Source: an uncultured bacterium (GTDB taxonomy: Bacteria; Armatimonadota; Abditibacteriia; Abditibacteriales; Abditibacteriaceae). Taken from it: 64,000 nucleotides of DNA. Where the stretch lies: assembly GCA_963843795.1 (NCBI GenBank), contig CAWJLW010000006.1, forward strand, positions 682,001-746,000. Direction: 5' to 3'. The notes under the pieces were generated by a model. The model ran no database searches. It had not been told where the DNA came from and worked only from the letters and a program-made list of their open reading frames with translations. The position numbers and the translations under genes were made by a program. Positions 913-62,691 of the stretch are shown piece after piece (the first letter of the stretch is position 1; the number at the start of each line of letters is the position of its first letter).

Positions 913-1071
913 GCTTTTAATGGCATCACAAAGAAAATGAGCGCTGCAAGTACTTGCGACTGCTTTCGACATTCGCTGAGCCAAAAATTCGCCAGTTTTC
1001 ATCGAATCGAATCATGCATGTGTGCGAAAAAAGCCCTGCAAGTACTTGCGCGGCTTTGTTGTAATTGAATC

Positions 1072-3354
1072 ATGGCTTTTTCCGATTCTTCTTATGCGTC
1101 CGGCACCGTTTCCAGCTTGCTCGATTCCCCACACGTTTCGCCCGCCACGCGCGCGGTTTTACAGGAACGCTTGGCGCCACCCACTGCACCACAATTTTTT
1201 GATGAGGGCGAATTTCGCACGCTGGAAGCGATTTGCGCGCGTCTCTTGCCACAGCCCGACCGCGAAACGCCAATTCCCATCGCTAGCGGAATTGACGAAC
1301 GCTTGCAGCAGAATCGCAGCGATGGTTGGCGCTACGATGTCATGCCGCCCGACCGTGAAAGTTACCGCGATGGTTTGCGTGCTTTGAACGAAATAGCGCG
1401 CAGTGAAAGCGGCGCAACGTTCGTCGCTTTGACGATTGAACAGCAAGACGATTTGCTAGAGCGCGTTCAAAACGGTATCGAATGGAGCGGGCCAAACGCG
1501 CGCTTGTGGTTTGAAGAATTGCTCCATGAGGCGACTGAAAATTACGTTGCGCATCCATTGGCCCATGAAGAAATGGGCTACGCGGGTTTCGCTGATCGTC
1601 CCGGCTGGACGAAAATCGAACTCAACGAGCGCGAAGACCGCGAGCCACCCGAAAATCAGCCCGATTGGGAAGTTCCCGCCGGCTCGCTTTCCAATGGTGA
1701 AGTCGAAGAAATTCAGCACGCCGGAAGCGTTTTTGAATTGCTGGCGGGCGTCGAAATGAAAACTTATGGCACTGACGAAGAAGTTGATGTCATTGTCATT
1801 GGAACCGGCGCGGGCGGCGCTCCGGTACTGGCGCGTTTGGCGGCTGCGGGTCTGAGCGTGGTTGCTTTGGAAGCCGGTCGCTGGTTCCAGCCGCAGCGCG
1901 ATTTTGCGACTGATGAAAAATCGCAGCATCCTTTGTTTTGGAACGACGAGCGTTTGAGCGCGGGCACGCACCCGACGGCATTTGGCAACAACAACAGCGG
2001 AACCGGTGTCGGCGGCTCCACGCTGCATTACACCGCATATGTGCCACGCGCGCAGGCCGACGATTTGAAATTGCGCACCGAATTCGGCGTTGGTGTCGAT
2101 TGGCCAATAGATTTCTCTGAAATTGAACCGTATTACGGTGAAGTCGAGCAGTTCATTGGTGTTTCCGGCCCGACGCCGTTTCCGTGGGGTGCGCCGCGTT
2201 CGCAGGGCTATCCACTTGGCCCGCTGCCCTTGAACGGCGCAGCTCAATTAATGGCGCGCGGTTGCGATGCTCTCGGCATTGCTTATGCGCCCGCGGCCAA
2301 TGCCGCGCTTTCGGCTCCGTATTATCGCCAAGGCGTGGGTTGGCGTCGCGCCTGTACTAATCGAGGCTTTTGTCAGGCCGGTTGCTCGACGGGCGCTAAG
2401 TCTTCGATGGACGTGACGTACATTCCGCTTGCCTTGCAGCACGGCGCGGAAATTCGCGCCGAAAGTTTCGTTACTACCTTGGAAACCGATGAGCGCGGCC
2501 ACATTATATCTGTGGTTTATCAACAAGACGGCAAAACAATGCGCCAGAAATGTCGCCACGTCTTTTTGTGCGCTGGTGCGATTGAAACGCCGCGCCTGCT
2601 GATGCTGAACAATTTATGCAAGGCAGGCGGCCACCTTGGGCATCATTTCATGACGCATCCGGGCTTGCAATTGTGGGCGAATTTTGAGGAAGCAACCCGA
2701 CCGTTCAAAGGCATTCCGGGCGCTTTGATTTCCGAAGAAACTCATCGGCCCAATCAGTTCGAGTCGATGAAACAGTTCGGCGAAGTCGATTTTGCGGGCG
2801 GTTATCTATTGCAATCTATCGGCGTAATGCCGGTAACATATGCTGTGCAACGCGCGCGCGGCGTGCGCGAGCAGGGTGGCGGCATCTGGGGCGAAGAATT
2901 ACGCGAAGATATTCGGCGTTACAATCATGTCGCGGGCATCAATGTTTTGGGAGAAGGTTTGCCGTATGATGGCAATCGCATGGAACTTTCTAGCGAAACC
3001 GATGTGCGCGGCCTGCCTAAACCGCGCGTTTATCACAGCGCGGGCGATAACGAACGCAAGCTCATCGCGCATTCCGACCGTGTGATGCGCGCGATTTTTG
3101 AGGCCGCCGGCGCGCGCGACATTTGGAGCTTAAACCGCTTCGCACACATTATGGGCACCTGTCGGATGTCCAGTCAAAGCCATGATGGCGTCGTGAATAG
3201 CGAAGGCCGCGCGTGGGAAGTTCCGAACTTGTGGATTAGCGATAACTCGACTTTCCCTTCGTCGCTCAGTTGTAATCCTTCCTTGACAATAATGGCCCTA
3301 GCGTTGCGCACCGCTGATAAATTTCTGGCGAGATTGAATCGCAACGAAGCATAG
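1072..3354 (+). CDS. GMC-family FAD oxidoreductase with a fused N-terminal gluconate 2-dehydrogenase subunit-3-like domain
   Basis: DVIVIGTGAGG FAD motif, GVGGSTLHY, C-terminal HIMGTCRM and NPSLTIMALALR; the N-terminal ~190 aa (FRTLEAICARLLP...Y.AHP...EMGY.G) resemble subunit 3. Confidence 0.85.
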   Translation: MAFSDSSYASGTVSSLLDSPHVSPATRAVLQERLAPPTAPQFFDEGEFRTLEAICARLLPQPDRETPIPIASGIDERLQQNRSDGWRYDVMPPDRESYRDGLRALNEIARSESGATFVALTIEQQDDLLERVQNGIEWSGPNARLWFEELLHEATENYVAHPLAHEEMGYAGFADRPGWTKIELNEREDREPPENQPDWEVPAGSLSNGEVEEIQHAGSVFELLAGVEMKTYGTDEEVDVIVIGTGAGGAPVLARLAAAGLSVVALEAGRWFQPQRDFATDEKSQHPLFWNDERLSAGTHPTAFGNNNSGTGVGGSTLHYTAYVPRAQADDLKLRTEFGVGVDWPIDFSEIEPYYGEVEQFIGVSGPTPFPWGAPRSQGYPLGPLPLNGAAQLMARGCDALGIAYAPAANAALSAPYYRQGVGWRRACTNRGFCQAGCSTGAKSSMDVTYIPLALQHGAEIRAESFVTTLETDERGHIISVVYQQDGKTMRQKCRHVFLCAGAIETPRLLMLNNLCKAGGHLGHHFMTHPGLQLWANFEEATRPFKGIPGALISEETHRPNQFESMKQFGEVDFAGGYLLQSIGVMPVTYAVQRARGVREQGGGIWGEELREDIRRYNHVAGINVLGEGLPYDGNRMELSSETDVRGLPKPRVYHSAGDNERKLIAHSDRVMRAIFEAAGARDIWSLNRFAHIMGTCRMSSQSHDGVVNSEGRAWEVPNLWISDNSTFPSSLSCNPSLTIMALALRTADKFLARLNRNEA

Positions 3355-3366
3355 AAACAATAAAAA

Positions 3367-3394
3367 AGCGTGCTGCAAGTACCTGCAGCACGCT
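3367..3394. terminator. Hairpin centred on a variant palindrome, downstream of the GMC gene
   Basis: AGCGTGCTGCA-AGTACC-TGCAGCACGCT with an A-tract on the left. Confidence 0.55.
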
Positions 3395-3567
3395 CTTGCT
3401 ATTGAGTGGGCAAGTTTCGCAGTTTGAGAGATTCTCGTAGGATGCGGGTTTCTGCAAAAACAATCAACTATAAACAAATCGCAACGCTTTAGCACGCGGC
3501 GGCGTCACGATGGCCTTGCAAGTACTTGCGGCGCTAAACTATGACGGCAGCATAAGGAGATACGAAA

Positions 3568-4215
3568 ATGAAAATGTTATTGATGGGCGCACTCGCGCTT
3601 GGCACAGCGGGCGCGGTTTACGCGGCCTCGACGATTCACAAAGCCGACACGAAAGTCATTGAAAGCCCCAAAACTGGAACCGCCAAAATGGACAATACCC
3701 AAAGCAAAACCGATGTAAAAACTCCAGCCGTCTTGAATTTCACCATGAATTCTTTGGAAGGCAAGCCGGTCGATCTGGGTCGCTACGCGGGCAAAGTGGT
3801 GTTGATCGTCAACACGGCCAGCAAATGCGGATTCACGCCGCAATACAAAGGCTTGCAGGCGCTTAATGAGAAATATAAAGCTCAAGGCTTGGAAATCTTG
3901 GGTTTTCCGGCTAACGATTTCGGCCAGCAGGAGCCGGGCACCGCTGCGGAAATCGGCACTTTCTGCGAGAAAAATTACGGCGTCACATTCGATATGTTCG
4001 ATAAGGTCGCAGTGACCGGCGATAACAAAACGCCGTTATATAAATTTCTTACCGAAAAAGATACCAACCCAAAATATTCCGGCGAAATCGGTTGGAATTT
4101 CGAAAAGTTTCTCATCGGTCGCGACGGTGAAATTCTCAGCCGCTTCAAATCTGCTATCACACCGCAGTCCGAAGAAATGACGACTGCCATTGAAGCCGCG
4201 CTCAAAGCTCAATAA
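3568..4215 (+). CDS. Glutathione peroxidase (Cys type) with signal peptide
   Basis: IVNTASKCGFTPQY, LGFPANDFGQQEPG and WNFEKFLIGRDG motifs; AAGGAG RBS. Confidence 0.93.
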   Translation: MKMLLMGALALGTAGAVYAASTIHKADTKVIESPKTGTAKMDNTQSKTDVKTPAVLNFTMNSLEGKPVDLGRYAGKVVLIVNTASKCGFTPQYKGLQALNEKYKAQGLEILGFPANDFGQQEPGTAAEIGTFCEKNYGVTFDMFDKVAVTGDNKTPLYKFLTEKDTNPKYSGEIGWNFEKFLIGRDGEILSRFKSAITPQSEEMTTAIEAALKAQ

Positions 4216-5203: not shown

Positions 5204-5301
5204 AATTCCTCCGCTTGGCTCCTAAAATTTCGTCTTGCAAGTACTTGCAGAACAGTTTGTGACAGCAAGCGCGACGCAATAGTGTCGAATTCAACCTGAA
5301 G

Positions 5302-7407
5302 TTAAGCCTGCGCCGGAACCACGAAAATCACTACATCGCTTTGAACCGGCGATGTGGAAAGTTTGACGGTGTTTTTGTCGGTAATTTGCAAATTTTCGGT
5401 GTGCAAAGTTTGACCTTTCACAGTGCTCATCCAGGTCGCGCGATATTTTCCGGGCTTCAAACCCTGAACTGTTATATTCCCCGTTGCGGCTCCGGTTTCA
5501 TCATCGCGCTCGCCATTGGCAGTCAGCCACGCGGCCCAGAATTGGGTGTTGCCCAGCGCCCGCGCGGCCAATGCCGGCGCATAATCTGACAAGCTAAAGC
5601 GCTCGATCACTGCCCAATCTGGGCCGCTGTTTTCCAGCGTCACAACTTGCGGCCCGGTGGGCACTTCAATCGCCAAGACAGCTTTATCGCCTTTGAGCGT
5701 TGAGTCGTTTTCAGTCGCGGGAAAATCGCGTTCGATAACTTTATCGCCAACGCTCAATTTGAGCTGCGCGCCCGCTTTGGCGATTTGTGTCAGTTGAACC
5801 GTGAAGCGGCCCGGTTGCGTAAAATTGACTTTGAAACGCAAGGGTTGTGGATTCATGGCGCGATGATTTTGGCCTTGTAAGAACTTCGGCAAAGTGTCGA
5901 TGCCAAGCGGCGCGCCGTTGGGTTCAACGACAAATTCATTTTGTTTGGCTTCTCCCCAACCCGCGCCCGGCCCGAAGCTGAGTTCGCCGCGCTCTTTGGT
6001 CGTGACTTCAGGCTGCAACGTTTGCAAATCGTTTTGGTTGGCCAATTGGCTGGCGCGCAGAAATTGTGACGCACCCACAAAATGAGAATATAAATCGTAT
6101 TTCTCGACGGCCTCCCAATCCCAATACTGCGCCGCGCCGCTGTTACCGCTCATCAAACCGGCCCACAAACCCTGATGCAAGTACTTGCCAGTCGGGTCTT
6201 GCAAATTCGGCGGGCCAAATTCGCCGACGAAAAACGGTTTCGTCCATTCTTTGCCTTCGGGTTTGCCCAGCGCGACAATCAAATCGGAAGGATAGGAATG
6301 TTCCTGAATGAAATCCATATTCTTCCAAACTTCGGGTGTCAGTTCGCCACTGGAACTGGTGGTAATCAGATGATGAAACGGGTCTTGTGCGCGCAGAAAA
6401 GCCGCCATTTCGCTGTGCCAGTTGGCGATTTCGGGCCACATTTTGGCTTTGGCAGCGTCGGTAAACTGCACTTCGTTGAACAGCTCCCACGCCAAAATCG
6501 ACGGCGAGTAACCCCACCGCGCAATCGCGTAACGCAGCTTCCGTTTGGTGAGTGCTTTGGCACGTTCGTTGGTGAAAAATTCTTCCGGCTTGTCTAAAAA
6601 CCCACCGTTTTTGGTGTTATACGGATTGTCGTCCCAGTTCGGATTGGTGGTTGTCGAATACTGGCCATGATGCTGCAAAGTCATCTGAATCGCCATATCG
6701 TTGCGTCCGGCGCGCTGCACGATGGCGTCCCATTTTCGCGCGGCTTCCAAATTCAAATCGCCCAAATTCCCTTTCAAAGGCCAATCGAGGTTTTTGCCGT
6801 CCCAATGATTCATCCACACGCGCGCCCAGTTCTCGCCGTGGGCGCTCATTCTGGAAAGAACGTTGGGAATATCGGGCACGTCTTTGCTCGTCCACGCCAC
6901 GTTGTGGCCGAGGGGAAAATAGCGCGCACCGTTATCATATACAAAGTGCGTGGGCGCGTTGGGGTCAATGCGCACGAAGCCCTTCCCGAACGCTTCTTTT
7001 TGGGTTTGGGGCAACGGCGTTTTTTCGCCATTCACGCTGATCCCACCGACTTGACGCGCGGTTTCGATTTTCTGTCCGTTGAGCGTGATGTCGCCCCAGC
7101 GCAGATAAGGCGAAAGCGGTGTGAAGCGCGCGCGCCATTGCGTGCCGCCATCGAAAAACGCGGGCACGCTGTATGCCCGTCCGCCCGCGCGCAGTTGCAC
7201 TTGCACATCGGTGGCGAGATAATCGAACGGATCGGTGATTAAATCGGGCAGTTCAAACGCGATTTCCTGCGACAAATAATGGCCGCTTCTGACAACTTGT
7301 TGGGGTTGAAGGGGAACCGTTGGCATTGGAAGAACCGCGGGCGCGCCCTGGCAAAGATTGGTAGAAGCCAGCAGCGCGCAGATAGAGAGGGCGAAACAGG
7401 TTTTCAT
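5302..7407 (-). CDS. Secreted clan GH-A (GH5-like) glycoside hydrolase with DUF5060-like N-terminus
   Basis: Signal peptide; PAFFDGGTQWRARFTP; AWELFNEV acid/base and FVGEFG nucleophile motifs. Confidence 0.78.
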   Translation of the reverse strand: MKTCFALSICALLASTNLCQGAPAVLPMPTVPLQPQQVVRSGHYLSQEIAFELPDLITDPFDYLATDVQVQLRAGGRAYSVPAFFDGGTQWRARFTPLSPYLRWGDITLNGQKIETARQVGGISVNGEKTPLPQTQKEAFGKGFVRIDPNAPTHFVYDNGARYFPLGHNVAWTSKDVPDIPNVLSRMSAHGENWARVWMNHWDGKNLDWPLKGNLGDLNLEAARKWDAIVQRAGRNDMAIQMTLQHHGQYSTTTNPNWDDNPYNTKNGGFLDKPEEFFTNERAKALTKRKLRYAIARWGYSPSILAWELFNEVQFTDAAKAKMWPEIANWHSEMAAFLRAQDPFHHLITTSSSGELTPEVWKNMDFIQEHSYPSDLIVALGKPEGKEWTKPFFVGEFGPPNLQDPTGKYLHQGLWAGLMSGNSGAAQYWDWEAVEKYDLYSHFVGASQFLRASQLANQNDLQTLQPEVTTKERGELSFGPGAGWGEAKQNEFVVEPNGAPLGIDTLPKFLQGQNHRAMNPQPLRFKVNFTQPGRFTVQLTQIAKAGAQLKLSVGDKVIERDFPATENDSTLKGDKAVLAIEVPTGPQVVTLENSGPDWAVIERFSLSDYAPALAARALGNTQFWAAWLTANGERDDETGAATGNITVQGLKPGKYRATWMSTVKGQTLHTENLQITDKNTVKLSTSPVQSDVVIFVVPAQA

Positions 7408-7981: not shown

Positions 7982-10084
7982 ATGACATTCACTTATTTGC
8001 CGCGTTTCGATGACAGCCGTCCGTTCGCTTCGCCTTACAGTCACGGTTTCGCCCGCGTCGCCGTTGCCATTCCCACTGTGCGCGTCGCCGACCCGCAATT
8101 CAACGTTGGGACAACGCTCGAACTCGCTCGTCGTGCTGATAAAGATCATGCCGCTATCACGCTGTTCCCTGAACTCGGAATTTCCGCGTATTCCAACGAC
8201 GATTTGTTTCAGCAAGACGCACTTCTCGATGGCGTCCAAAGCGCCCTGCAAGTACTTGCACACGCCAGTCGCGAGATTTCGACCCTACTATTAGTCGGTG
8301 CCCCGCTACGCTTCGATACTCAATTGTTTAATTGCGCGGTCGCGATTGCTAATGGTCAGATTCTCGGTATTGTCCCCAAAAGTTATTTGCCCAATTATCG
8401 CGAGTTTTATGAAAAACGCCAATTTTCTGCCGCGCGCACCGCGATTTCGTCTGAAGTTTCGCTTTTGGGCCAACGCGTGCCATTCGGCACCGACTTGATT
8501 TTCGAATGCGAAAACCTGCCCAACTGCGCCTTGCACGTCGAAATCTGCGAAGATTTGTGGACGCCGTTGCCACCAAGTACTTTGGGCGCGCTTGGCGGCG
8601 CGACGATTTTGGCGAACTTGTCAGCCTCGAATATTACCATCGGCAAAGCGCAATATCGCAAAGATTTGTGCGCGGCGCAATCGGGCAAATGTGTGGCGGC
8701 TTATCTGTATTCGGCTGCTGGCCCGGGCGAATCAACCACCGATTTGGCGTGGGACGGCGACGCGCTAATCTACGAAAACAACGAACTTCTGGCCGAAGCC
8801 GACCGCTTTTCGCAAGACGCGCAACTCATCAGCGCTGATATTGATTTGGAACGCCTGGCACAAGAACGCGCGCGATTAACCAGTTTTCACGATGCGCGCG
8901 GCGATTTTCGTCCTCTCATTGAAAAGATGCGCCGCGTGCGCTGGCAGTTCGATGCGCCTCAAAAGCCTGTCGCGCTACAACGCATCGTCGAACGATTTCC
9001 CTATGTACCCAACGCCACACGCGAGCGCGATGAGCGCTGTTACGAAGCTTATAACATTCAAGTTCACGGCCTGATGAAGCGTTTGCAAAGCGCGCGCATC
9101 GAGAAAATCGTCATCGGCGTTTCGGGCGGTTTGGATTCCACACACGCACTGATCGTCGCCGCGCGCACGATGGATCGTTTGGGTTGGCCGCGCGAAAACA
9201 TTCTGGGCTTTACCATGCCGGGTTTCGCCACCAGCCAGAACACGCTCCACAACGCGCACGCTTTGATGAACAGTTTGGGCATCACGTCGCACGAAATTGA
9301 CATCAAGCCAAGTTGTTTGCAAATGCTGCGCGATTTGGGTCATCCGTTCATTGACGGACAACCGCAGTACGACATCACTTTTGAAAATGTGCAGGCGGGC
9401 GAGCGCACCAGCCATCTGTTTCGTTTGGCCAATTTTCACAATGCGATTGTTCTTGGCACAGGCGATTTATCGGAATTGGCGCTGGGCTGGTGTACTTATG
9501 GTGTCGGCGACCACATGAGCCATTACAACGTGAACGCCAGCGTGCCCAAAACGCTGATTCAATACTTAATTCGGTGGGTCATCGCAAGCGGCCAGTTCGA
9601 AGGCGCGACCGGCGGCATTTTGCAGTCAATTTTAGATACCGAAATTTCACCTGAACTAATTCCAAGCGAAACCGGTGATGATGATAATCCTGATAAAGCA
9701 CCCTCGCAAAGCACGCAAGCGAAAATTGGCCCGTATGAACTGCAAGATTTCAATACTTATTACGTGACGCGCTACGGTTTTCGCCCCAGCAAAGTCGCGT
9801 ATCTCAGCCATTGCGCGTGGCACGACCGCGAGAATGGCGCGTGGCCAGCGGGCTTTGAAACTGCCGACCGCAACCAATACGATTTGGCCGAAATCAAAAA
9901 ATGGCTTGGCGTGTGGTTGTGGCGATTTTTTCAGACCAGCCAGTTCAAACGCTCGTGCGTTCCCAATGGTCCGAAAGTTGGCAGCGGTGGCAGCCTCAGC
10001 CCTCGCGGCGATTGGCGCGCGCCCAGTGACAGCGAAGCGACGGTTTGGCTGGACGAATTGAAAAATGTGCCGGATGAGATTTGA
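7982..10084 (+). CDS. nadE: Glutamine-dependent NAD(+) synthetase
   Basis: Nitrilase-like N-domain ([22 protein letters not shown]) plus [17 protein letters not shown] and SQFKRS. Confidence 0.96.
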
Positions 10085-10087
10085 ATT

Positions 10088-10139
10088 TGAGAAGCAAAAA
10101 GCGCGCTGCAAGTACTTGCAGAGCGCTTTTTGCTTCTCA
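10088..10139. terminator. 52-bp inverted repeat (1 mismatch) centred on TGCAAGTACTTGCA; probable bidirectional terminator between nadE and rpoN
   Basis: TGAGAAGCAAAAAGCGCGC-TGCAAGTACTTGCA-GAGCGCTTTTTGCTTCTCA between convergent stops. Confidence 0.75.
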
Positions 10140-11668: not shown

Positions 11669-11897
11669 CGAAAGTGCTTATCCTTATATAATTTCCACAG
11701 AGTTTTCACAACGCGCAAAATGCGCTGCAAGTACTTGCGGGTCGTTTGAAATTTAAAATTTGGCGCAAATTTAGAATTTGGCCGCGTGTTGGCACGCAAA
11801 TTTACGCGCTTTAACCGCTTCCAATTTCAAGAAGCGTGCCACCACAACACAATACTCAAAAAGAACTTTTGACAGAAACTTTCACAAGGAACTTTTC

Positions 11898-12573: not shown

Positions 12574-12650
12574 ATTTCAATAAAAAATCAGAAATGGGCG
12601 CTGTAATTATTCGTGCAAGTACTTGCAGCGCCCGTTTTGGTGACAACGCT

Positions 12651-13781: not shown

Positions 13782-13862
13782 GAGAAATTTGGAGACGCGC
13801 AAATGCTCCAAAGTTTCACCGCACGCGCGCTGCAAGTACTTGCAGCGCGCTAAAATAAAGCC

Positions 13863-16722: not shown

Positions 16723-16735
16723 ACACACTGTTAGA

Positions 16736-16781
16736 AAAGCCAAAAAAGCCCTGCAAGTACTTGCAGGGCTTTTTTGGCTTT
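16736..16781. terminator. 46-bp perfect palindrome centred on TGCAAGTACTTGCA; probable bidirectional terminator
   Basis: AAAGCCAAAAAAGCCC-TGCAAGTACTTGCA-GGGCTTTTTTGGCTTT between convergent genes. Confidence 0.8.
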
Positions 16782-20293: not shown

Positions 20294-20393
20294 AAAAAGC
20301 AACTGCACGCGCGGTTAAACTATCATTATTATTCAATGCGTCGCGCGTTTTAAGAATTCTGTTAAGTGTGACCGATGGGCGCGAAAATTTATC

Positions 20394-23831
<3,438 letters not shown>

Positions 23832-43742: not shown

Positions 43743-43780
43743 GCTGCAAGTACTTGCAGAAAGCCACAAACGTCCAACTC

Positions 43781-44381: not shown

Positions 44382-44472
44382 GTTTCTATTTTAACCTCCA
44401 CTCAAATCTTGCGTTCAACTCTGACGCTGGAAACAAATCTAGCGCTGCAAGTACTTGCAGCGCGATAAACCC

Positions 44473-45664: not shown

Positions 45665-45748
45665 AGCTGCAAGTACTTGCAGCACGCTATCTGGTTCGGA
45701 ACCTCCAAACGCCAGCGGTTAAACTGGGTTGCGCTTACCAAAATTCTT

Positions 45749-47151: not shown

Positions 47152-47191
47152 ATGTGACACTGCAAGTACTTGCGGTGCGATTCACAGACAA

Positions 47192-47921: not shown

Positions 47922-49514
47922 TTGGCTAAACTTGGAATTATGAGCGATCAGGAACTGGCACGGGCGTTGATGAGCAAAGGTTTATTAACGCCTCCTCAAA
48001 TTCAGATGGCCCTTTCTCGTCGAGAAGCGGGCCGTAGCTTTGCGCAAACCATGGTCGATTTGCAAATCGTCAGCCCTATCGACATTGCCGAAATCGATCC
48101 ACACGCCTTTGGTCGCGTTCATTCAGGAAAGCTAGACCAAAATGGCAACGCGTCCAAATTCGGTAAACAGAGCGAGAAAAGCGCCAGAGAAGACGCGCAG
48201 GTCGCAGCGAAAATCGCCGAGGTTTCCGTGGGTTTGGGACAGGACGATGCGCCCGAATCTGGCAACCTTAGAGTCATAATTCACGGCGAAACCGAACGTG
48301 AAGACGGTACAATTCCCAGTCCGATTCGTAATTTTTGCAGCGAATTGATCGCCTTTGCCGTACAACTGCGCGCTTCCGACTTGCATCTCGAACCGCGTAG
48401 CGACGGATTGTTGCCGCGTTATCGCGTTGATGGCCGACTGCGCACCTACGGTTCGGTAATTCCGGGCGAATTGCAAGCGCCAATTATTTCGCGCTTCAAG
48501 GTGTTGTCGAATCTTGACATCACCGAAAACCGTATGCCACAGGACGGGCGGTTTCGCGCCACTATCGGCGACCGCGTCTTCGATTTTCGCGTTTCGTCCC
48601 TACCGGGCATTTTGGGCGAAAAGTTGGTTTTGCGCTTGCTCGACCGTTCCAGCCTCGTCACCGATTTGACCAAGCTTGGTTTCAGCGACGAAGAACGCAA
48701 TCGTTTTGAAGAAATGCTGGGGCGTTCTTATGGTTTAGTGTTAGTGACCGGCCCGACCGGTAGCGGCAAAACCACGACGTTATACGCGGCGCTGGCCGCG
48801 ACCAAAGATGAAACTAAAAATGTCATTACGGTCGAGGATCCGGTTGAATATGAAATGTCGGGTGTGACGCAAACCGCGATACATAGCGAAATCGGACTGA
48901 CTTTCGCGACGCAGTTGCGCGCGATTCTGCGTCAAGACCCGGATGTCATTCTAGTTGGCGAAATTCGCGACAACGAGACCGCTGATATTGCGGTGCGCGC
49001 GGCTTTGACCGGCCACTTAGTTTTATCGACGCTGCACACTAACTCGGCAGCGGGCGCAGTCGCGCGTTTGCAGGATATGAATGTGCCCGATTTTCTGCTC
49101 GCTTCGAGTTTGACCGGTGTTTTGGCACAGCGCCTGGTGCGCCTGATTTGTCGCCATTGCCGCGAACCGATTCCGCACGATGATCCTCAATATGAGATAG
49201 ATATTGCGCGATTGCGCTTGAATCCGGGCGCGCCCTTGTTTCGTGGCGCGGGCTGCGAACATTGTAACGGCACAGGAATGCGCGGGCGCATGGCTTTGTT
49301 GGAATTGATGAACGTCGATGGCCCGATGCGCCGCGCCTTAGCCGCCGCCGCGCCTTTGGACACGCTGCGCGAACTGGCCAGGGAAAGCGGCATGAAAACC
49401 TTATGGCAAGACGGCGTGGAAAAAGCTCAGCGCGGCCTCACAACTGCCGAAGAAGTTTCCCGCGCTTTGCTGGGCGCCGAAGATATCGAAGCGGTCATTG
49501 ATGAAGTCGGGTGA
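47922..49514 (+). CDS. GspE/PilB-family secretion or pilus assembly ATPase
   Basis: ASDLHLEP, GPTGSGKTTT, ILRQDPDVILVGEIRD, TGHLVLSTLH and Cys4 motif; N-terminal MshEN-like segment. Confidence 0.92.
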   Translation: MAKLGIMSDQELARALMSKGLLTPPQIQMALSRREAGRSFAQTMVDLQIVSPIDIAEIDPHAFGRVHSGKLDQNGNASKFGKQSEKSAREDAQVAAKIAEVSVGLGQDDAPESGNLRVIIHGETEREDGTIPSPIRNFCSELIAFAVQLRASDLHLEPRSDGLLPRYRVDGRLRTYGSVIPGELQAPIISRFKVLSNLDITENRMPQDGRFRATIGDRVFDFRVSSLPGILGEKLVLRLLDRSSLVTDLTKLGFSDEERNRFEEMLGRSYGLVLVTGPTGSGKTTTLYAALAATKDETKNVITVEDPVEYEMSGVTQTAIHSEIGLTFATQLRAILRQDPDVILVGEIRDNETADIAVRAALTGHLVLSTLHTNSAAGAVARLQDMNVPDFLLASSLTGVLAQRLVRLICRHCREPIPHDDPQYEIDIARLRLNPGAPLFRGAGCEHCNGTGMRGRMALLELMNVDGPMRRALAAAAPLDTLRELARESGMKTLWQDGVEKAQRGLTTAEEVSRALLGAEDIEAVIDEVG

Positions 49515-49664
49515 AAATGCGCAGCAAGTACTTGCTGCGCGCGTTTACGCCTGCATTAAAATCGAACCGAGCGCAGCGAAAGTTATGCAGCATTGTTGAT
49601 AACGCAAACCCGAAAAAACAAACCCGAGAAGAAGACCATTTCCGCCTCGCGCCATGCTTCCATT

Positions 49665-50399
49665 ATGCTGCCTTTTTCCCCAGTTTTTCGCCGTTACTTT
49701 CCTGTTTGGCATCTCATCGCGCGCGCATTAACGCGAATCTTCGCGCCGCGTTTTCATGTCAGCGGACGACGCAATGAGCCGCGCAGGGGCGGCGTGATTT
49801 TTGTGCCTAACCACACTTCCGATAGCGACCCTTTCTGGGTGGCGGCGGCGCTGCGACGGCGCGTTTGGTGGATGGCCAAAGCTGAAATCTGGCGCGATTT
49901 TCCGGTCGCGGGCAAAATCATGAGCTTTGTCGAAACTTTTCCGGTCGAGCAAAACCAGATGGATCGCATGGCGCTTGAGCGCTCGCTGGAAATTCTCAAA
50001 CGCGGCGATGCATTAGTCATTTTTCCTGAAGGCCATTGTTCGCCTGACGGCAATTTGCAGCCTTTGGAATCGGGCGTGGCGATGCTGGCTCTCAGAAGTG
50101 GCGCGCCTGTTGTGCCTCTGGGCATTGTAGGTGCGCAACAAGTTTTGCCATATGCGACGATTAGTCCGCGCCCGACTTTAGGCCCTTTGCGTGTGCATAT
50201 CGACAATAAAATTCTTTTCGACGACTTGAGCGCAATGCCCAAACGCGAAGCGCGCAAAATTGCACTTGAACGTATTGAAGCCGGAATCCGTAACGCGCAA
50301 AATGTGCGCAAAGTTAAAGGAAGTAGCCGCCAAAGCAAAAAGCTCACTGCAAGTACTTGCAGTGAGCTTTTTAATGGGACGTTACAGCGATTTATTTAG
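49665..50399 (+). CDS. plsC: 1-acyl-sn-glycerol-3-phosphate acyltransferase (PlsC family)
   Basis: NHTSDSD (HX4D), MAKAE and IFPEG motifs; start and 3' end uncertain. Confidence 0.82.
   Translation: MLPFSPVFRRYFPVWHLIARALTRIFAPRFHVSGRRNEPRRGGVIFVPNHTSDSDPFWVAAALRRRVWWMAKAEIWRDFPVAGKIMSFVETFPVEQNQMDRMALERSLEILKRGDALVIFPEGHCSPDGNLQPLESGVAMLALRSGAPVVPLGIVGAQQVLPYATISPRPTLGPLRVHIDNKILFDDLSAMPKREARKIALERIEAGIRNAQNVRKVKGSSRQSKKLTASTCSELFNGTLQRFI
50337..50372. terminator. 36-bp perfect palindrome centred on the repeat, between convergent genes
   Basis: AAAAAGCTCAC-TGCAAGTACTTGCA-GTGAGCTTTTT. Confidence 0.75.
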
Positions 50400-51588: not shown

Positions 51589-51632
51589 CGCCAAACCGCG
51601 CACTGCAAGTACTTGCAGTGCGCGGTTTGGCG
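51589..51632. repeat. 44-bp perfect palindrome centred on the repeat, downstream of the antiporter gene
   Basis: CGCCAAACCGCGCAC-TGCAAGTACTTGCA-GTGCGCGGTTTGGCG. Confidence 0.85.
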
Positions 51633-51672: not shown

Positions 51673-53535
51673 CTACAAAATTTCGACTCGTGCTCGTTCG
51701 TAATTTTGCGCTTCTTTGGTGTCTTTATCTTCTGCGGGCATCAATAATTGAAAGCCCATTGGTCCGGCAATGGAAGTAACCAGCGCGACGGCGATCAGAG
51801 CGGCGTAAACTTCTTCGGGAAATAAGCCCAAACGCTGTCCGATTTCCGCGGCGGCGATAATTAGAGACAAGCGCGAGGCCAGCAAAAAGCCTGCGGCCAT
51901 TGTTTCTTTGAACGACACGATGCGGCGAAAAGGCAGAGCGGAAACCACTTTGATCGCGACGGCGCAAATGATGAGCATGGGCGCCAAAATCATTCCGCGT
52001 GGCGAACCCGTCAGAGCCGATAAGTCGAAGCGCACACCGACCATCACAAAGAAAATCGGGATGAAAAATCCGAAGCCCAACGCTTCTAATTTATGGCGCA
52101 AATCGGAAGTGTTGGGGCCGGTGAAAATCGACAGCAGCACACCCGCCAAGAACGCGCCTAAAATAACTTCGGTGCCCAGAATGGCCGACATCGCCACGAA
52201 TGCCAACATCAAAAACAAACTACCTCGCACCGAGGCTTGCGAAGTGCCTTTGGACAGTTCACTCAAAATCTCGCCCGGACGTCCCAAACGCGACAAAAAT
52301 TGACCGGCGCTCAAAGCAATCGCGAAGACGACTAACAGGCCCAAACCCAAAAACAATTGCCATGTCAAACCCTTGGAAAGCCAGCCCGCGACGACCGTTA
52401 TCAGGAACATCGTCACAAAGTCGGCGACTAGGGCCGATAATAAAATCGCCTGACCAAACGGCGTTGCGGTGAGGTTGCGTTCTTTGAGAATTGGCACCAC
52501 TAAGCCCAGCGAAGTTGTCGAGAGCACCAGTGCCATCAGCCAAGGCTGTTTGATCAGTCCGAATTGCGTCAAAGCCACAGCAGAAATTAGCGCCAATACG
52601 AGTGTGAAACCGAAAATGCTGAATGCTATTTTGAGCGAGCTTGGTTCTTTACTGGGTTCTTTAACAGCGCGATTTTTTTCAGTGATCGGCGTGGGAACGG
52701 ACGAAGTGACCTTGGTGTCCAGCACCGTTCCGGCGACTTCGCGAGTTTTTTCGGTCGCTTTTTTAATCGCTTCAGTGGCACTTTTGACTGCGTTGCCTTT
52801 TTTCAGTTCTTCAGGATTTTTCGATTTGGTGAGCAGCGAAACATCAACTTCCAAGCCCGACAAAAACATGAGATAGGCGAAGCCGAATTCGGCTAAAAAT
52901 TGCAGCCACGAATCGTAGCGCACCAGATTAAAGCCGCTGCGGCCGATGATGATGCCGCACAGAATTTCGCCAACCACAACTGGAATTGGAAATTTTTTGA
53001 AGTGCGAAACCACGAGCGGCACGCCAAAAGCCAGAGCAGAAACGATGAGCAGAGGCATAAATGAAATGCCATGATGCTCTTCGCTATCGCTGTGGTAAAG
53101 CGGCTTGACTTCGGATAATGTGGTGCGCAGCAAGTTCGACCAGCGCTCGGCAAGTACTTGCTGGGTGACATTTTCGCCTTGCGCGTCACCTTCTGTCACA
53201 TCCAAAATCGGCAAATCGGGCAGGCCGATCAGCGGGTTGCCGTTGTTGCCGACGGTGACTTCCATTAATTCGGGCCGTAATTCGGCTTCGGTCAAAACAC
53301 GCTTTAAACGACCGTTGACAATGCCCGCCCGTTCGAGAGCGCTGATGCTACCTACGCTTTCGCGCAAGGTAAACAATACACGGTCGCCGACCACAATTGC
53401 GCCTACGTCTTGCTGGGGCGGTGGTGGCGCACCCTGCGCGCGCGCGGTTGCGGGGATCAAAACGCATAATGCGCAAAAAAGGCTGAGTAGCGCGCGCTGA
53501 AAAAGTGGTTTCTGCGAATGAAAATATCGCTTCAT
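51673..53535 (-). CDS. CPA2-family cation:proton antiporter with an extra N-terminal exported domain
   Basis: PVVVGEIL.GIIIG, YLMFLSGLE, TTSLG.VVP.LKE, ILGAFLAG and GFFIPIFF motifs. Confidence 0.9.
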   Translation of the reverse strand: MKRYFHSQKPLFQRALLSLFCALCVLIPATARAQGAPPPPQQDVGAIVVGDRVLFTLRESVGSISALERAGIVNGRLKRVLTEAELRPELMEVTVGNNGNPLIGLPDLPILDVTEGDAQGENVTQQVLAERWSNLLRTTLSEVKPLYHSDSEEHHGISFMPLLIVSALAFGVPLVVSHFKKFPIPVVVGEILCGIIIGRSGFNLVRYDSWLQFLAEFGFAYLMFLSGLEVDVSLLTKSKNPEELKKGNAVKSATEAIKKATEKTREVAGTVLDTKVTSSVPTPITEKNRAVKEPSKEPSSLKIAFSIFGFTLVLALISAVALTQFGLIKQPWLMALVLSTTSLGLVVPILKERNLTATPFGQAILLSALVADFVTMFLITVVAGWLSKGLTWQLFLGLGLLVVFAIALSAGQFLSRLGRPGEILSELSKGTSQASVRGSLFLMLAFVAMSAILGTEVILGAFLAGVLLSIFTGPNTSDLRHKLEALGFGFFIPIFFVMVGVRFDLSALTGSPRGMILAPMLIICAVAIKVVSALPFRRIVSFKETMAAGFLLASRLSLIIAAAEIGQRLGLFPEEVYAALIAVALVTSIAGPMGFQLLMPAEDKDTKEAQNYERARVEIL

Positions 53536-55681: not shown

Positions 55682-55903
55682 GAAATGCCGCCGCTCCTCC
55701 GCGCCAGAAACCAAAATCCACTTTATCTGTTGTGCAAGTACTTGCGCAGCGCTTTGAACGCGTCGCAAACTCAATGCACATTTTCCGTGCAACTCTTTTC
55801 AAGGTCGCACGCCATTATACCACAAAAAACCGGTTTTTTTGCCCATCGATTGGGCACATTACGACTTTTAGTTGCTTATTCATTCTTAATTCTGCACTCG
55901 ATC

Positions 55904-58495
55904 ATGTCTGCATCGCCTGTCACACCTTCGCCGCGCCGCCGTTCTTCGGGCCGCCATCGCTCATCGCAACGCCGCACTTTTCCCACGCCTGCGCCAGTTT
56001 CGCCCGATGAACGCGCTATGCGCCTGCTCGAATGGCCGCGCGTTTTGTCGCGTCTGGAAAACCTCGCATCCTGCGAACCCGGTCGCACGCTTGTGCGCGC
56101 TCTCGAACCCACACGCGACCACCAAATTGTGCGCCGCGCTTTGCAAATCACCGATGAAGCGCGCCATTTTCTACGCGATTCGGCTCATCGTGGTGCAGCA
56201 AATTTGCCATTTGGTGGCATTCATGACATCGGTTCCGCTCTCCAGCGCGCGCGCATCGGTTCGGTATTGGACGCGCCCGAACTCAATCGCATCAAGCGCG
56301 TGGCTGAAAGCGCGCGCCGCATCGCGCAAGTCCTTGTCGAGGCTTCGGACGAAGAATTCTGCCCGCCACAAGACACGCGCCGGAGTTGGGAAATCGACCC
56401 AGATGAGAAGCTCGAAATCGCGCCTGCAAGTACTTGCAATTATTATTTGCGCGCTTTAGCGCAGGAAATCGAAGCCCAGCCACAATTGGAAAAACGTTTG
56501 GAAGACGCCATCGACGAAGCCAGCGAAGATCTGCGCGACGGTGCTTCGCTCGACTTATTGAAAGCGCGCCGCAACATTCGCAATACGCAAGACGCCGTGC
56601 AAAGCCGTCTGCGCGCTATGCTCAGCGACCCTTCGATTGCGCCCGCGCTGCAAGACGCTTTCGTGACCGTGCGCAACGGGCGCTATTGTCTACCGGTGAA
56701 AAGTGATGCGCGCGGTCGCGTGCCTGGCATTATTCACGACCGTTCCGGCGGTGGCGGCACCGTTTTCGTCGAGCCGCAAAGCGTGGTCGATTTGAACAAT
56801 CAATTGCGCGAATGGCACTTGGCCGAACGCGATGCCATCGAAGCGATTTTGCGCGCCTTAAGTGCCGAAGTCGCAAATGTGGCCGATGAATTGGAAGTGA
56901 TGTTGAACGTTTGCGCGCAGTTAGATTTCGCGTTTGCCAAAGGTCGGCTTTCGATTAGCATGGACGGCAGCGCGCCCAAAATTAACGAGCGCCCAATTTA
57001 TAATCTCAAGCAAGCGCGCCATCCGCTCATCGAAAGTTGCGTCGCCAACGATATTCGATTGGGCGATGAATTCGACGTTTTAATGATTACCGGCCCCAAC
57101 ACCGGCGGCAAAACAGTCGTTATGAAAACTCTGGGCCTGAGTTGTCTGATGACAATGTGCGGCCTCCACATCGCGGCCCTTCCAGGCAGCGAAATTTACC
57201 TGCCGCGCGCGATCTGGGGCGATATTGGCGACGAGCAATCCATCGAGCAATCGCTTTCGACATTTTCTTCGCACATGACCAATATCATCGCGATTCTCAA
57301 TGGCGCGCGCGCCAATGATTTGGTGATGTTCGATGAAATCGGCGCGGGCACCGACCCCGATGAAGGCGCAGCCTTAGCCAAAGCGATTCTGCGCAATTTG
57401 CAGCGGCGCGGCGCGCAAATTCTTTGCACCACACATTATGGCGAACTCAAACATTTCGCCGCCGGTGCCGAGCGCTTTGAAAACGCCAGCGTCGAGTTCG
57501 ACGCTCAAAGTCTCGGCCCGACTTACCGTTTGCGTATCGGCGTTCCGGGTTCGAGCAACGCCTTGGACATCACGGCGCGTCTGGGCATGAACCCCGAATT
57601 GGTACAGCGCGCGCGCAAATACTTGGGCCGCGACCGCGAACTGGCTGAAACTGCCGCACAACGTTTGGAAGAAACCCAGCGCGAATTAGAGCAGCAAGCC
57701 GAAGGTGTGTCGCGCGAACGCGAAGAAATCGAACGCTTGCGCCGCGATTATGAAAACCGCGTGGCGAAATTGCAAGCGCAGTTGGAGCGCGAACGCGAAG
57801 AAGCGCGCGTACAAGCCGCCGAATTGGTGCGCAACGCTGAACGCGAAGCCGACGCCGCCCTGAAAGAATTGCGCGCTGCGGCGCGCACCGGACGCGAAAG
57901 CAAAGCCACCGAAACCGCGCGCGGACGCTTGCGCGATTTGCGCGAACGCACTTCAGCCGAAAGTCAAACGCCCCAGCGCGACCACAAAAACGCGCCGCAA
58001 GTACCTGCAGGGCGCAAAAATGCATCAGGCGCGCTGCCATCGCATTTGGAAAGTTTGAAAAAAGGCGATTTGGTGCGCGTGAAATCCCTCGGACGCGAAG
58101 CGATTTTGCTGTCCGATCCGCAAGGCGAAAAGCGCGTGCCCGTCCAAGTCGGCGCGGTGAAAATTGATGTCAACGTGAGTGATTTGGACGCGGTTCAAGC
58201 GCCCAGCGGCGCAAACGGTGGCTTCAACGTGCAAGTTCGCAAGGGTATTAAAGTCGCCGACGAATTGAATTTAATTGGCAAAAATACGCAGGAAGCCCTG
58301 CCGGAATTGGAGAAATATCTGGACGATGCTTTGCTGAGCGACACCAAAGAAATCCGCATTGTCCACGGCAAAGGCAGCGGCGTATTACGAATGTTCGTGC
58401 GACGTTGGCTGCAAGATCAAGGCAGCGTACTCGAAGTGGAATACGCGCCACAGAATCAAGGTGGCGAAGGCGCGACACTGGCGAAATTGGGTTGA
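55904..58495 (+). CDS. mutS2: Endonuclease MutS2
   Basis: LLEWPRV, TGPNTGGKT, DIGDEQSIEQSLSTFS, DEIGAGTDP and Smr domain IVHGKGSG. Confidence 0.95.
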   Translation: MSASPVTPSPRRRSSGRHRSSQRRTFPTPAPVSPDERAMRLLEWPRVLSRLENLASCEPGRTLVRALEPTRDHQIVRRALQITDEARHFLRDSAHRGAANLPFGGIHDIGSALQRARIGSVLDAPELNRIKRVAESARRIAQVLVEASDEEFCPPQDTRRSWEIDPDEKLEIAPASTCNYYLRALAQEIEAQPQLEKRLEDAIDEASEDLRDGASLDLLKARRNIRNTQDAVQSRLRAMLSDPSIAPALQDAFVTVRNGRYCLPVKSDARGRVPGIIHDRSGGGGTVFVEPQSVVDLNNQLREWHLAERDAIEAILRALSAEVANVADELEVMLNVCAQLDFAFAKGRLSISMDGSAPKINERPIYNLKQARHPLIESCVANDIRLGDEFDVLMITGPNTGGKTVVMKTLGLSCLMTMCGLHIAALPGSEIYLPRAIWGDIGDEQSIEQSLSTFSSHMTNIIAILNGARANDLVMFDEIGAGTDPDEGAALAKAILRNLQRRGAQILCTTHYGELKHFAAGAERFENASVEFDAQSLGPTYRLRIGVPGSSNALDITARLGMNPELVQRARKYLGRDRELAETAAQRLEETQRELEQQAEGVSREREEIERLRRDYENRVAKLQAQLEREREEARVQAAELVRNAEREADAALKELRAAARTGRESKATETARGRLRDLRERTSAESQTPQRDHKNAPQVPAGRKNASGALPSHLESLKKGDLVRVKSLGREAILLSDPQGEKRVPVQVGAVKIDVNVSDLDAVQAPSGANGGFNVQVRKGIKVADELNLIGKNTQEALPELEKYLDDALLSDTKEIRIVHGKGSGVLRMFVRRWLQDQGSVLEVEYAPQNQGGEGATLAKLG

Positions 58496-59182: not shown

Positions 59183-59222
59183 ATGGCACTGCAAGTACTT
59201 GCGCAAGTACTTGCAGTGCCAT
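59183..59222. repeat. 40-bp perfect palindrome containing two tandem copies of the 12-bp core
   Basis: ATGGCACT-GCAAGTACTTGC-GCAAGTACTTGC-AGTGCCAT. Confidence 0.92.
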
Positions 59223-60137: not shown

Positions 60138-60171
60138 AAGCGTGGTGTGCAAGTACTTGCACACCACGCTT
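60138..60171. repeat. 34-bp perfect palindrome centred on the repeat, between rplS and lepB
   Basis: AAGCGTGGTG-TGCAAGTACTTGCA-CACCACGCTT. Confidence 0.85.
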
Positions 60172-61837: not shown

Positions 61838-61918
61838 AAAACACGCAGCAAAAAACGCGGCGCACCACAAATGCTTGTCGCTGAGAGCTGCAAGTACTTG
61901 CGGATGCACAACCGCGTT

Positions 61919-62260
61919 TTAGCGTTCGTCCACCAGTTCTAAGGGCGAATCGTCGGTTAGAATTTCAATCGAAACGCGCTCACCAGTCTTGGTCGCCGAG
62001 GCTTTCACCAAGGAACGCAGCGCATTGGCGACACGACCATCGCGGCCAATCACACGTCCGATATCTTCTTCATGAACGCGCACGCCATAAACCGAGCCGA
62101 CATTATCGAAAAATTCTTCGACTTCGACTTCGTCGGGATGGCCAACGATATTCTGCACCAGATAACCGACCAGCTCGATTAAACGCGCGTCTTCTGCGGC
62201 GGGCACGTCGTAGGCTGAGACATCGAATTCATCGTCCTGCGTGTTTTGATCGTCACTCAT
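61919..62260 (-). CDS. khpA: KH-domain RNA-binding protein
   Basis: DIGRVIGRDGRVANALR; position after rpsP. Confidence 0.9.
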   Translation of the reverse strand: MSDDQNTQDDEFDVSAYDVPAAEDARLIELVGYLVQNIVGHPDEVEVEEFFDNVGSVYGVRVHEEDIGRVIGRDGRVANALRSLVKASATKTGERVSIEILTDDSPLELVDER

Positions 62261-62283
62261 AACGTTTTCTCACACGAAAAAAA

Positions 62284-62616
62284 TTAGGCAACAGCTTCGG
62301 CAGGCTTGGCTTCTTCGGACGCGACCGGCGCAGTTTCATTCTGAGCGGCTTCGGCAGGAATCACTTTGTTGCTGGAATCGGTGATACCAGCTTTGCGCAG
62401 CAAGGACGCCACCGTTTCGCTGGGCGAAGCACCCTGACTGAGCCATTTACGTGCTTTGTCGCCATCAATTTCGCAAACCGAAGGCTGACGTGTCGGCAGA
62501 TAATAACCGATGCTGTCGATAAAACGGCCATCGCGCGGGCTATTCTGATCGGCGACCACAATACGATACGCCGGGTTGTTCTTGGCGCCGGTACGGCGCA
62601 AACGAATACGAACCAT
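62284..62616 (-). CDS. rpsP: 30S ribosomal protein S16
   Basis: MVRIRLRRTG and YRIVVAD...PRDGRFI motifs. Confidence 0.98.
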   Translation of the reverse strand: MVRIRLRRTGAKNNPAYRIVVADQNSPRDGRFIDSIGYYLPTRQPSVCEIDGDKARKWLSQGASPSETVASLLRKAGITDSSNKVIPAEAAQNETAPVASEEAKPAEAVA

Positions 62617-62691
62617 AATCTTGTTTTCTCTCCAATAATCCACGCAAACGCCCTGCAAGTACTTGCAGGGCGGAATACGCAACCTTTTATT

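Follow-up and report, generated by a model that had tools for sequence, protein, structure and literature searches.

A GTAC-centred palindrome as a candidate self-DNA signal in an Abditibacteriaceae genome, with purge of GTAC in sister lineages

The window analysed here is a stretch of 64,000 nucleotides (contig CAWJLW010000006.1 of assembly GCA_963843795.1, positions 682,001 to 746,000) from an uncultured bacterium of the Abditibacteriaceae, in the Armatimonadota. It is filled with copies of the 12-bp palindrome GCAAGTACTTGC, which has GTAC at its centre. This motif is a lineage-specific recognition signal. It is made by substitution, retained, and evenly spaced at about one copy per 1-2 kb, with dialects in relatives built around GTAC. 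With moderate confidence, we read it as a genome-wide tag of self-DNA, similar to the DNA uptake sequence (DUS) or the highly iterated palindrome HIP1. Such a tag would bias uptake or recombination around methylated GTAC, and the purge of GTAC in sister lineages would be the mirror strategy.

Abundance and anatomy of the palindrome

The source genome (G000) has 4.30 Mb in 11 contigs, and its main contig (C6) has about 3.6 Mb. It holds 2,567 copies of GCAAGTACTTGC. This is its commonest 12-mer, and a fifth-order Markov model expects 7.4 copies. One-off variants are also in excess (510 vs 47 expected). Copies are present on all 11 contigs (2,279 on C6) and are not restricted to the window. The other genomes of the phylum (n=400) present 0-3 copies each, and the sole genome of the same genus (63% complete) falls in this range.

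An original prediction, made from the letters of the window, had reported 40 exact copies between 946 and 62666. We obtained the same count and span, and 100 dinucleotide shuffles gave zero copies. Allowing two mismatches, the window has 55 matches (2.85 expected). They include 15 near-variants, eight with one mismatch and seven with two, in agreement with the more than ten announced. The announced split of about 28 intergenic copies and about 12 inside ORFs was nearly right; our own gene calls place 29 between genes and 11 in open reading frames (ORFs). The claim of unrelated flanks does not hold. The consensus is an A-tract (45-55% A in the stretch from -8 to -10), GCGCT, the core, AGCGC and a downstream T-tract. 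The edge of the core is sharp, and the base just outside it is conserved in 66% only. A scan of a wider collection of genome contigs with a 16-mer gave at least 36 matches, all single among the matches listed, and further motif-rich genomes may exist.

With our own gene caller (3,555 genes, 86% coding), 1,792 copies are intergenic, 753 lie in genes, 17 overlap the end of a gene, and another 5 lie at the edges of contigs. The density is 2.9/kb between genes and 0.20/kb within them, a 14-fold difference, with 70% of the copies intergenic. By type of spacer, 1,223 of these are tandem, 299 convergent and 270 divergent. About half of the divergent spacers hold a copy. Likewise, spacers of at least 40 nt hold one in roughly half to 60% of cases, independent of their length. 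In-gene copies are distributed evenly along the gene and occur in all three frames, mostly reading xQVLA. Motif codons account for 502 of the approximately 556 QVLA peptides, and the tripeptide QVL appears 938 times vs 475 for EVL. In genes, the upstream A-tract is kept (42% vs 23% in a frame-matched control). The downstream T-tract is not (24% vs 22%).

The stem is extended by at least 7 bp in 506 of the 1,792 intergenic copies, more precisely in 188/299 convergent and 25/270 divergent ones. Extended hairpin copies with A and T tracts, a minority of the intergenic copies, look like bidirectional terminators. Two in the window have this aspect: 10090..10137 (-33 kcal/mol, z -6.4) and 16735..16782 (-35.3 kcal/mol, z -8.75).

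Spacing of the copies

Along C6 the density is 47-83 copies/100 kb from 0.1 to 3.6 Mb, the turning point of the GC skew included. An origin-to-terminus (ori/ter) profile had been proposed as a check; it is flat along this contig, with no trend. The spacing is under-dispersed (index 0.58 at 5 kb). In-gene copies are a median 1,049 bp away from their closest intergenic neighbour, vs 676 +/- 28 bp in 200 permutations (maximum 771). Shuffling the in-gene copies within their own gene gives 942 +/- 30 bp. Coding DNA up to 300 bp from a spacer has 0.12 copies/kb if the spacer has a copy and 0.28/kb if it has none (p 1.6e-6). In-gene copies thus fill gaps and are fewer near occupied spacers, so the force that makes sites is weaker where another site already lies closer than about 1 kb.

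A simple fast Fourier transform, unlike the published HIP1 method, found no periodicity at 10-90 kb (the strongest period, 34 kb, had a power of 8.1, whereas the 95th percentile of the null was 10.0). Between 4 and 150 kb no period exceeded shuffled gaps. Close pairs of copies on C6 favour spacings of 12-13, 39-41, 50-51 and 62 bp, approximately helical multiples.

The motif is absent from recently acquired DNA. The biggest motif-free gaps contain transposase and plasmid-type genes, as judged by eye from translations. The end of contig C6 (3,600,000-3,623,414) is also motif-free. It has 67% GC with VirB-like and heavy-metal genes, and is foreign DNA or a misjoin.

Origin by substitution

We compared G000 genes with their orthologues in samples of two motif-rich relatives, G001 (253 kb) and G009 (489 kb). 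In-gene motif sites were gap-free in 19/28 and 26/38 cases, respectively. Amino acid identity at the sites was 0.51 and 0.34, and elsewhere in the same genes 0.63 and 0.61. The remaining sites had indels of -8 to +7 net codons, in both directions and with no fixed size. Gap-free sites with poorly conserved codons point to substitution at tolerant positions, not to the insertion of an element. The core or the dialect of the other species stood at the same position in 6/19 gap-free sites (G001) and 2/26 (G009), and in 3/29, 3/85 and 0/13 in the reverse comparison; conserved residues somewhat inflate these counts. In two metagenome species with 81% identity, 13/23 sites were identical vs 22% of random 10-mers. 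None of the remaining sites was at one or two mismatches. These alignments show a motif that appears to arise mostly by substitution and to be kept once present. DUS and the uptake signal sequence (USS) are likewise reported at tolerant coding positions by substitution (PMC2397512, PMC2817400). The motif does not behave like the end of an insertion sequence or miniature transposable element, an origin that the original prediction had left open. Sequencing-read joints at motif positions were rejected; their sides were short and fitted other copies of the repeat.

Dialects in relatives

The family set comprises 27 genomes (7 motif-rich and 20 others), or 31 with outgroups. Six relatives carry about 2,000-4,700 copies each of their own GTAC-centred dialect. 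The TCGAGTACTCGA dialect has 2,770 copies in G009, 2,510 in G015 and 2,261 in G019. AAAGTACTTT has 1,987 in G001. The AGTACGGTCGA dialect of G006 (2,412) is non-palindromic and appears as single copies or inverted pairs; its long form has GTAC at both ends. G012 presents a looser GAGTACTC form, with 4,733 AGTACT. Finally, metagenome contigs 70-74% identical to G000 carry CAAGTACTTG. Across dialects the GTAC core is invariant and the flanks change, and the motif is palindromic in 6/7 motif-rich genomes. DUS dialects are likewise built around a fixed core (PMC3630211).

In G017, the few dialect-like copies cluster on contigs C26, C30, C59, C63 and C77, possibly by transfer out of a motif-rich relative or because such a relative was binned with G017. 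Phage contigs with 38-44% GC (L374, L375, L417 = IMGVR_UViG_3300009514_000019, L356 and L381) carry GTGCAAGTACTTGCAC at about 5 per 20 kb, with several copies just upstream of head-gene ribosome-binding sites. They were rejected as relatives, having no similarity to G000, and GTGCAAGTACTTGCAC is probably the phage's own regulatory site.

Purge of GTAC and the orphan methyltransferase

AGTACT is rare in the remaining 20 genomes of the family, with a minimum of 1 copy in 6.0 Mb. We measured GTAC outside the motif as the ratio of CGTACC to its reversed control. This ratio is 0.002-0.50 across the family and 0.44-0.81 in 3/4 outgroups. A Vsr-type or C-to-A cause of the purge was considered and set aside: GTAT and GTGC are unchanged, and GTAA is 1.18 vs 1.03, a comparison confounded by codon choice.

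A motif screen of G000 found one DNA methyltransferase, an orphan of the beta class (C6:2517365-2518135). Orthologues with 56-75% identity are present in 22/27 family genomes, two of them broken. A correlation of the motif with such an enzyme had been suggested. It holds in one direction: all 7 motif-rich genomes have the gene. On a tree of Ffh, loss of the methyltransferase falls inside genus g2, and GTAC has been regained (0.29-0.38) in the three genomes nested most deeply in that loss. An Mrr-type gene (HARE-HTH + Mrr_cat) adjoins the methyltransferase in G005, G014 and G041 (L142, L144, L146).

A predicted nuclease in sister lineages

In G017 and G020 a gene for an unannotated protein of about 210 residues is convergent to that of the methyltransferase; in G003, 1.5 kb separates the two. 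The structure model of this protein (predicted local distance difference test, pLDDT, 89) matched MutH in Foldseek (E 2e-3). VIA aligned it with NhoI (Z 7.5, root-mean-square deviation 3.2, 119 aligned), DpnI (6.3), MutH (6.3) and PvuII (6.2). The predicted fold is that of a PD-(D/E)XK-type restriction endonuclease. One homologue (P0326) is fused to an NPPF methyltransferase. The family (L527-L539; P0121-P0240) extends by source names to Opitutaceae/Verrucomicrobiota, with 919 representatives at E<1e-3.

This predicted nuclease occurs in 13/31 genomes. It is intact in none of the 7 motif-rich genomes and present in 13/15 other methyltransferase carriers. The motif and an intact nuclease gene are mutually exclusive in the genomes searched. 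The two genes are mostly unlinked, being adjacent or near in 3/13 genomes. The median CGTACC/control is 0.007 in the 13 carriers vs 0.23 in the other 14 family genomes (about 30-fold). Among ten viral loci with a distant homologue, nine have GTAC as their rarest or second-rarest palindromic 4-mer. The depletion in hosts and viral loci suggests indirectly that the nuclease may cut GTAC. Together with the linkage of the two genes, GTAC depletion also makes this site the probable target of the methyltransferase. The earlier idea of a GTAC methylation site gains indirect support from this family pattern.

A hydrophobic N-terminal stretch precedes the conserved start in 111/118 close homologues and, by eye, in 10/13 family copies. 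Its hydropathy suggests that the nuclease may be exported. The viral loci (L541-L550) are giant-virus-like contigs, and their homologue is without the N-terminal stretch. It lies 3' of a major-capsid-like gene in five, and an amino-methyltransferase-like ORF is adjacent in five (by eye). In G020 (L128, C88) the methyltransferase groups with those of G000 and G001, not with its own genus, and the nuclease copy beside it is also without the signal-like stretch. The two genes are likely a transferred pair.

The motif-rich G015 keeps a frameshifted remnant of the nuclease (L130:1290-1470), between uvrC and the methyltransferase and convergent to the latter.

Interpretation

In the reading that we prefer, a reader protein would favour the uptake or recombination of tag-bearing DNA. 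The GTAC within the tag would probably be methylated by the orphan methyltransferase. One tag per fragment would suffice, so new copies would gain most where none is near. The ancestor would have had the methyltransferase and an exported GTAC-cutting nuclease. Lineages keeping the nuclease would have purged GTAC (self being GTAC-free), and two groups losing it would have built GTAC into long tags (self being tag-rich). The nuclease would act outside the cytoplasm on incoming DNA, favouring GTAC-free alleles at each transformation. This purge by transformation may be a stronger form of the GTAC avoidance of Helicobacter pylori (PMC2588503). Terminator hairpins would be a secondary use of the motif.

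HIP1 increases transformation, and does so depending on methylation (10.1101/2024.09.10.611283). This effect, the putative export of the nuclease, the USS-like A/T tracts and the asymmetric dialect of G006 lead us to favour uptake, at about an even chance, over repair and over a nucleoid role, both of which we consider improbable. A wider reading is tentative. Abditibacteriaceae would have the third independent uptake-signal system and the first on a restriction-modification (R-M) site. The exported enzyme would purge, its loss would lead to a receptor, and the dialects would act as gene-flow barriers.

Several observations weigh against the self-DNA tag. First, the methyltransferase is also present in 15 motif-free genomes, and its variable region does not track the dialect, so it cannot be sufficient. 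The named enzymes nearest to it share 32-36% identity and act on other targets, and in G015 it has AEPPY in place of DPPY. Second, the pattern of the nuclease has exceptions. G004 and G007 keep the methyltransferase, the nuclease was not found in them, and yet they are motif-free. The nuclease was not found in G016, G007, G002 and G025 (nor the methyltransferase in G016, G002 and G025), which are all GTAC-poor (0.02-0.08). G003 carries the nuclease yet is only mildly depleted (0.13). The recognisable remnant in G015 suggests that nuclease and motif may have coexisted. Third, the VIA Z-scores of 6-7.5 are middling, the signal-peptide call comes from a hydropathy window, and among the ten viral loci five are closely related. 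The genomes are kin as well, with about 2-3 independent nuclease losses accompanying the motif in a single-gene tree. With such kinship and few independent events, p-values overstate the association. Fourth, nearby indels occur at 9/28 and 12/38 in-gene sites vs 10-13% at random positions. Finally, models of intracellular repair or of the nucleoid equally predict even spacing, retention and depletion in islands.

The search for a reader also counts against this tag, having found none among the candidates checked. The genes comEC, comEA and dprA are all in G000. However, comEA, dprA, mutL and HU are common to motif-rich and motif-free genomes. As readers we rejected comEA on this ground, mutL (in 29/31 genomes irrespective of the motif) and HU (one copy in 5/5 genomes, non-discriminating). 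The comEC, secretins and ATPase of the window had been said to fit competence. They are present, but comEA and dprA occur equally in motif-free relatives, and this set of genes does not discriminate. Among 33 prepilin-like proteins listed in G000, none was singled out. No paralogue of the nuclease was found in G000 (profiles of 13 and 103 sequences, best E 0.14 and 0.68) or in five further sets with alignment A1. PabI (PF09522) gave 0/31 genomes and DpnI 0/5, with search controls equally unmatched in both.

The first alternative is an intracellular marker of methyl-directed repair or recombination. Hemimethylated GTAC, if in a suitable context, would direct strand choice in mismatch repair, as in Elhai's HIP model, and near-matches would be ratcheted into the motif up to a distance of about 1 kb between sites. 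This is unlikely in our judgement. The saturation observed (about one site per 1-2 kb) and the filling of gaps fit the model's range of about 1,000 nt (PMC4390886). The methyltransferase of all 7 motif-rich genomes also agrees with it. This gene lies beside uvrC in G015 and between mutL and uvrC in G009, and mutL is present. However, mutL is equally present without the motif, and MutH was found in 0/5 genomes (the E. coli control matched). The model needs a C5 methyltransferase, and PF00145 has no match in G000 (control matched in 9/14). Moreover, it lacks the sequence-specific reader that a 12-16 bp site, phased A/T tracts and the non-palindromic G006 dialect need, and it leaves an exported nuclease unexplained.

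Similarly improbable is a binding site of an abundant chromosome-organising protein, be it a factor of the nucleoid, of segregation or of the division site, with selection spacing the copies evenly. The dyad symmetry, with A/T tracts at a distance of about 15 bp from the centre, resembles a dimer footprint. The even, under-dispersed spacing and the excess of copies between genes would suit such a protein. HIP1 has been linked to nucleoid structure (PMC5861425). Nevertheless, the motif presents no ori/ter gradient and no periodicity above shuffled gaps. Close relatives live with almost no GTAC. Fast change of dialect and a non-palindromic dialect would be unusual for such sites. SlmA, MatP and Noc-type sites number in the tens, with ori/ter bias, in contrast with 2,279 copies in a flat profile on C6. 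In favour of such a protein, the g6 dialects have a GAGTACTC core similar to the SlmA site.

A tiny mobile or repetitive extragenic palindrome (REP)-like element, spread by a transposase or nuclease, is largely refuted. The species-specific sequence, the intergenic majority, the hairpins and the GTAC ends of the G006 long form would fit it. A gene like a REP-associated tyrosine transposase (RAYT) also lies 6 kb beyond the window. However, there is no fixed-length insertion, most sites are gap-free, and the boundary of core and flank is sharp. Copies are even along genes in three frames, and they avoid one another rather than cluster, forming no arrays near an enzyme gene. The repeats that go with the RAYT-like gene are different ones, of GTAG type (14 copies in the genome). 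G000 has no short Ssn-type GIY-YIG gene; its two GIY-YIG matches lie in frames of 450 and 672 aa. The RAYT/Y1-transposase-like ORF (G000:C6:751600-752480) is flanked by inverted GTAG-type REP pairs, and its 5' part seems interrupted. A fragmented type I/ISP-like R-M locus is located just upstream.

Gene conversion might also have spread a standardised intrinsic terminator hairpin. This would explain the extended stems with A and T tracts in convergent spacers, but it is very improbable given the few extended stems elsewhere, the copies in half of the divergent spacers and the 753 copies in genes.

Comparison with known systems

The motif appears to act like DUS/USS or HIP yet belongs to neither as defined. 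The original prediction had already stated that it matches neither, and this stands: it is palindromic, unlike DUS, and its sequence is unlike HIP1. Its reading as a signal of one of these kinds is supported in part, in agreement with the features testable in sequence.

With DUS (Neisseriaceae) and USS (Pasteurellaceae) it shares thousands of copies, species dialects and a short invariant core (PMC3630211, PMC2397512, PMC2817400, PMC3458573). It also shares permissive coding positions, raised tripeptides, absence from acquired DNA and terminator use. The flanking A/T tracts are USS-like (PMC3458573), and G006 has both single and inverted-pair copies. The differences are the phylum, the sequence and the palindromic form in 6/7 genomes. 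In addition, the core here is a probable methyltransferase/restriction site, purged in sister lineages. An uptake role is proposed here from sequence.

HIP1 and alternate HIPs are also iterated palindromes at about 1/kb, conserved between genomes, with species variants and an orphan methyltransferase in the same lineage (PMC4390886, PMC5861425, PMC13756078, 10.1101/2024.09.10.611283). In contrast, the motif has 12-16 bp instead of 6-8 bp, an AT-rich GTAC centre and a sequence other than GCGATCGC. It is 70% intergenic, with no C5 methyltransferase found in G000 and no 10-90 kb periodicity found. Its dialects differ in the flanks and share the core.

GTAC R-M systems include HpyAXII/PabI in Helicobacter, and CviQI, RsaI and MjaV are also named (PMC2588503). 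HpyAXII/PabI is likewise a long-held GTAC system in a competent bacterium, with more than 50-fold GTAC depletion across the genome and a methyltransferase more conserved than the nuclease (PMC2588503). Unlike it, the nuclease here is predicted as PD-(D/E)XK-type, has a signal-peptide-like N-terminus and in most genomes lies apart from the methyltransferase. Hyper-enrichment of GTAC accompanies its absence.

Ssn/SRM repeats (PMC11893778) and REP/RAYT repeats are likewise species-specific, mostly intergenic hairpins. They differ from the motif in that G000 has no repeat-flanked cognate enzyme and the asymmetric foot is absent. Here we find instead an apparent substitution origin, many in-gene copies and even spacing.

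In the literature searched (few subscription journals, no supplements) we found no relevant match to GCAAGTACTTGC or the dialect strings, no palindrome described for Abditibacteri*, no methylome of Abditibacteriaceae and no prior account of periplasmic restriction in transformation.

Sequence-specific tags of self-DNA this dense are known in Neisseriaceae and Pasteurellaceae, and also in cyanobacteria, where their function is disputed. A soil family unrelated to these, with several dialects, one of them non-palindromic, and GTAC-purging sisters, offers a natural experiment on the origin of uptake sequences and HIP, and on the reading of methylation. The chief novelty is a switch between enrichment and purge at one restriction site, with two small enzymes that can be assayed. 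The pattern of presence and absence across genomes can be used for finding the reader. An exported restriction enzyme reshaping its own genome, if true, would be unusual in itself. The tag reading also predicts how to make DNA acceptable to Abditibacteriaceae.

Copies in the window

Table 1. Position and context of the palindrome copies in the window, with genes given for context only.
Feature	Position	Strand	Context
Copy	946..957	.	divergent spacer
Copy	1038..1049	.	same divergent spacer as copy 946
Copy	3518..3529	.	tandem spacer
Copy	5237..5248	.	tandem spacer; without extended hairpin (z +0.5)
In-gene copy	6177..6188	.	reads GKYLH
In-gene copy, NAD synthase	8248..8259	.	reads LQVLA
Copy at 10108, forming the loop and inner stem of an A- and U-tract hairpin	10090..10137	.	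convergent genes
Copy	11727..11738	.	divergent spacer, upstream of rpoN
Copy	12615..12626	.	convergent spacer
Copy	13832..13843	.	divergent spacer; 7 extra paired bases
Copy at 16753, perfect 21-bp hairpin	16735..16782	.	between convergent genes
In-gene copy, comEC near 3' end	17672..17683	.	reads ASTC
In-gene copy, comEC	19819..19830	.	reads RKYLQ
In-gene copy, Memo-like ORF	20868..20879	.	reads ASTC
In-gene copy, ligA	22481..22492	.	reads MQVLA; fold not significant (z -1.4)
Copy	26682..26693	.	tandem spacer
Copy	26754..26765	.	tandem spacer; 14 extra paired bases
Copy	28045..28056	.	divergent spacer; 13 extra paired bases
In-gene copy, second secretin gene	30090..30101	.	reads LQVLA
Copy	31882..31893	.	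tandem spacer between secretin genes
In-gene copy, PAS/GGDEF/EAL gene	33960..33971	.	reads PQVLA
Copy	36989..37000	.	convergent spacer
Copy	38008..38019	.	divergent spacer
Copy	38253..38264	.	convergent spacer
Copy	39707..39718	.	tandem spacer
Copy	43746..43757	.	convergent spacer, 3 nt past ppdK stop
Copy	44447..44458	.	divergent spacer
Copy	45669..45680	.	tandem spacer
Copy	47162..47173	.	convergent spacer
Copy	49524..49535	.	3' of T2SSE/PilB-type ATPase gene
In-gene copy, acyltransferase	50349..50360	.	reads ASTC
Copy	51605..51616	.	tandem spacer; 16 extra paired bases
In-gene copy, Na/H exchanger	53150..53161	.	reads QQVLA
Copy	55734..55745	.	divergent spacer, upstream of mutS2
In-gene copy, mutS2	56426..56437	.	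reads ASTC
Two abutting copies (59191, 59203)	59191..59214	.	between lepB and rnhB
Copy	60149..60160	.	between rplS and lepB; 11 extra paired bases
Copy	61890..61901	.	between khpA and rimM
Copy	62655..62666	.	between ffh and rpsP
Near-variants (one mismatch) of GCAAGTACTTGC	3375, 4275, 15173, 17631, 23714, 25714, 47267, 57997, 58514 region	.	
comEC (DNA uptake channel), open frame	17651..20308	-	PF03772, E 1.7e-46; context only
Three secretin genes	28197..33501	+	context only
T2SSE/PilB-type ATPase	47922..49514	+	context only

Other observations

G000 avoids many palindromic 6-mers. CGGCCG, GTCGAC, GGGCCC and CGATCG are at about 0.2 of expectation, despite no C5 methyltransferase being found. 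CTAG is near zero in many relatives. In the window, the Memo-like gene (20394-21697) seems to be broken into two overlapping ORFs, for the N- and C-terminal halves, by frameshift or assembly error. Finally, positions 43832-45664 encode a PemK/MazF-like toxin and, upstream of it, a small partner; the same stretch has an HsdR_N-like ORF that two motif copies bracket.

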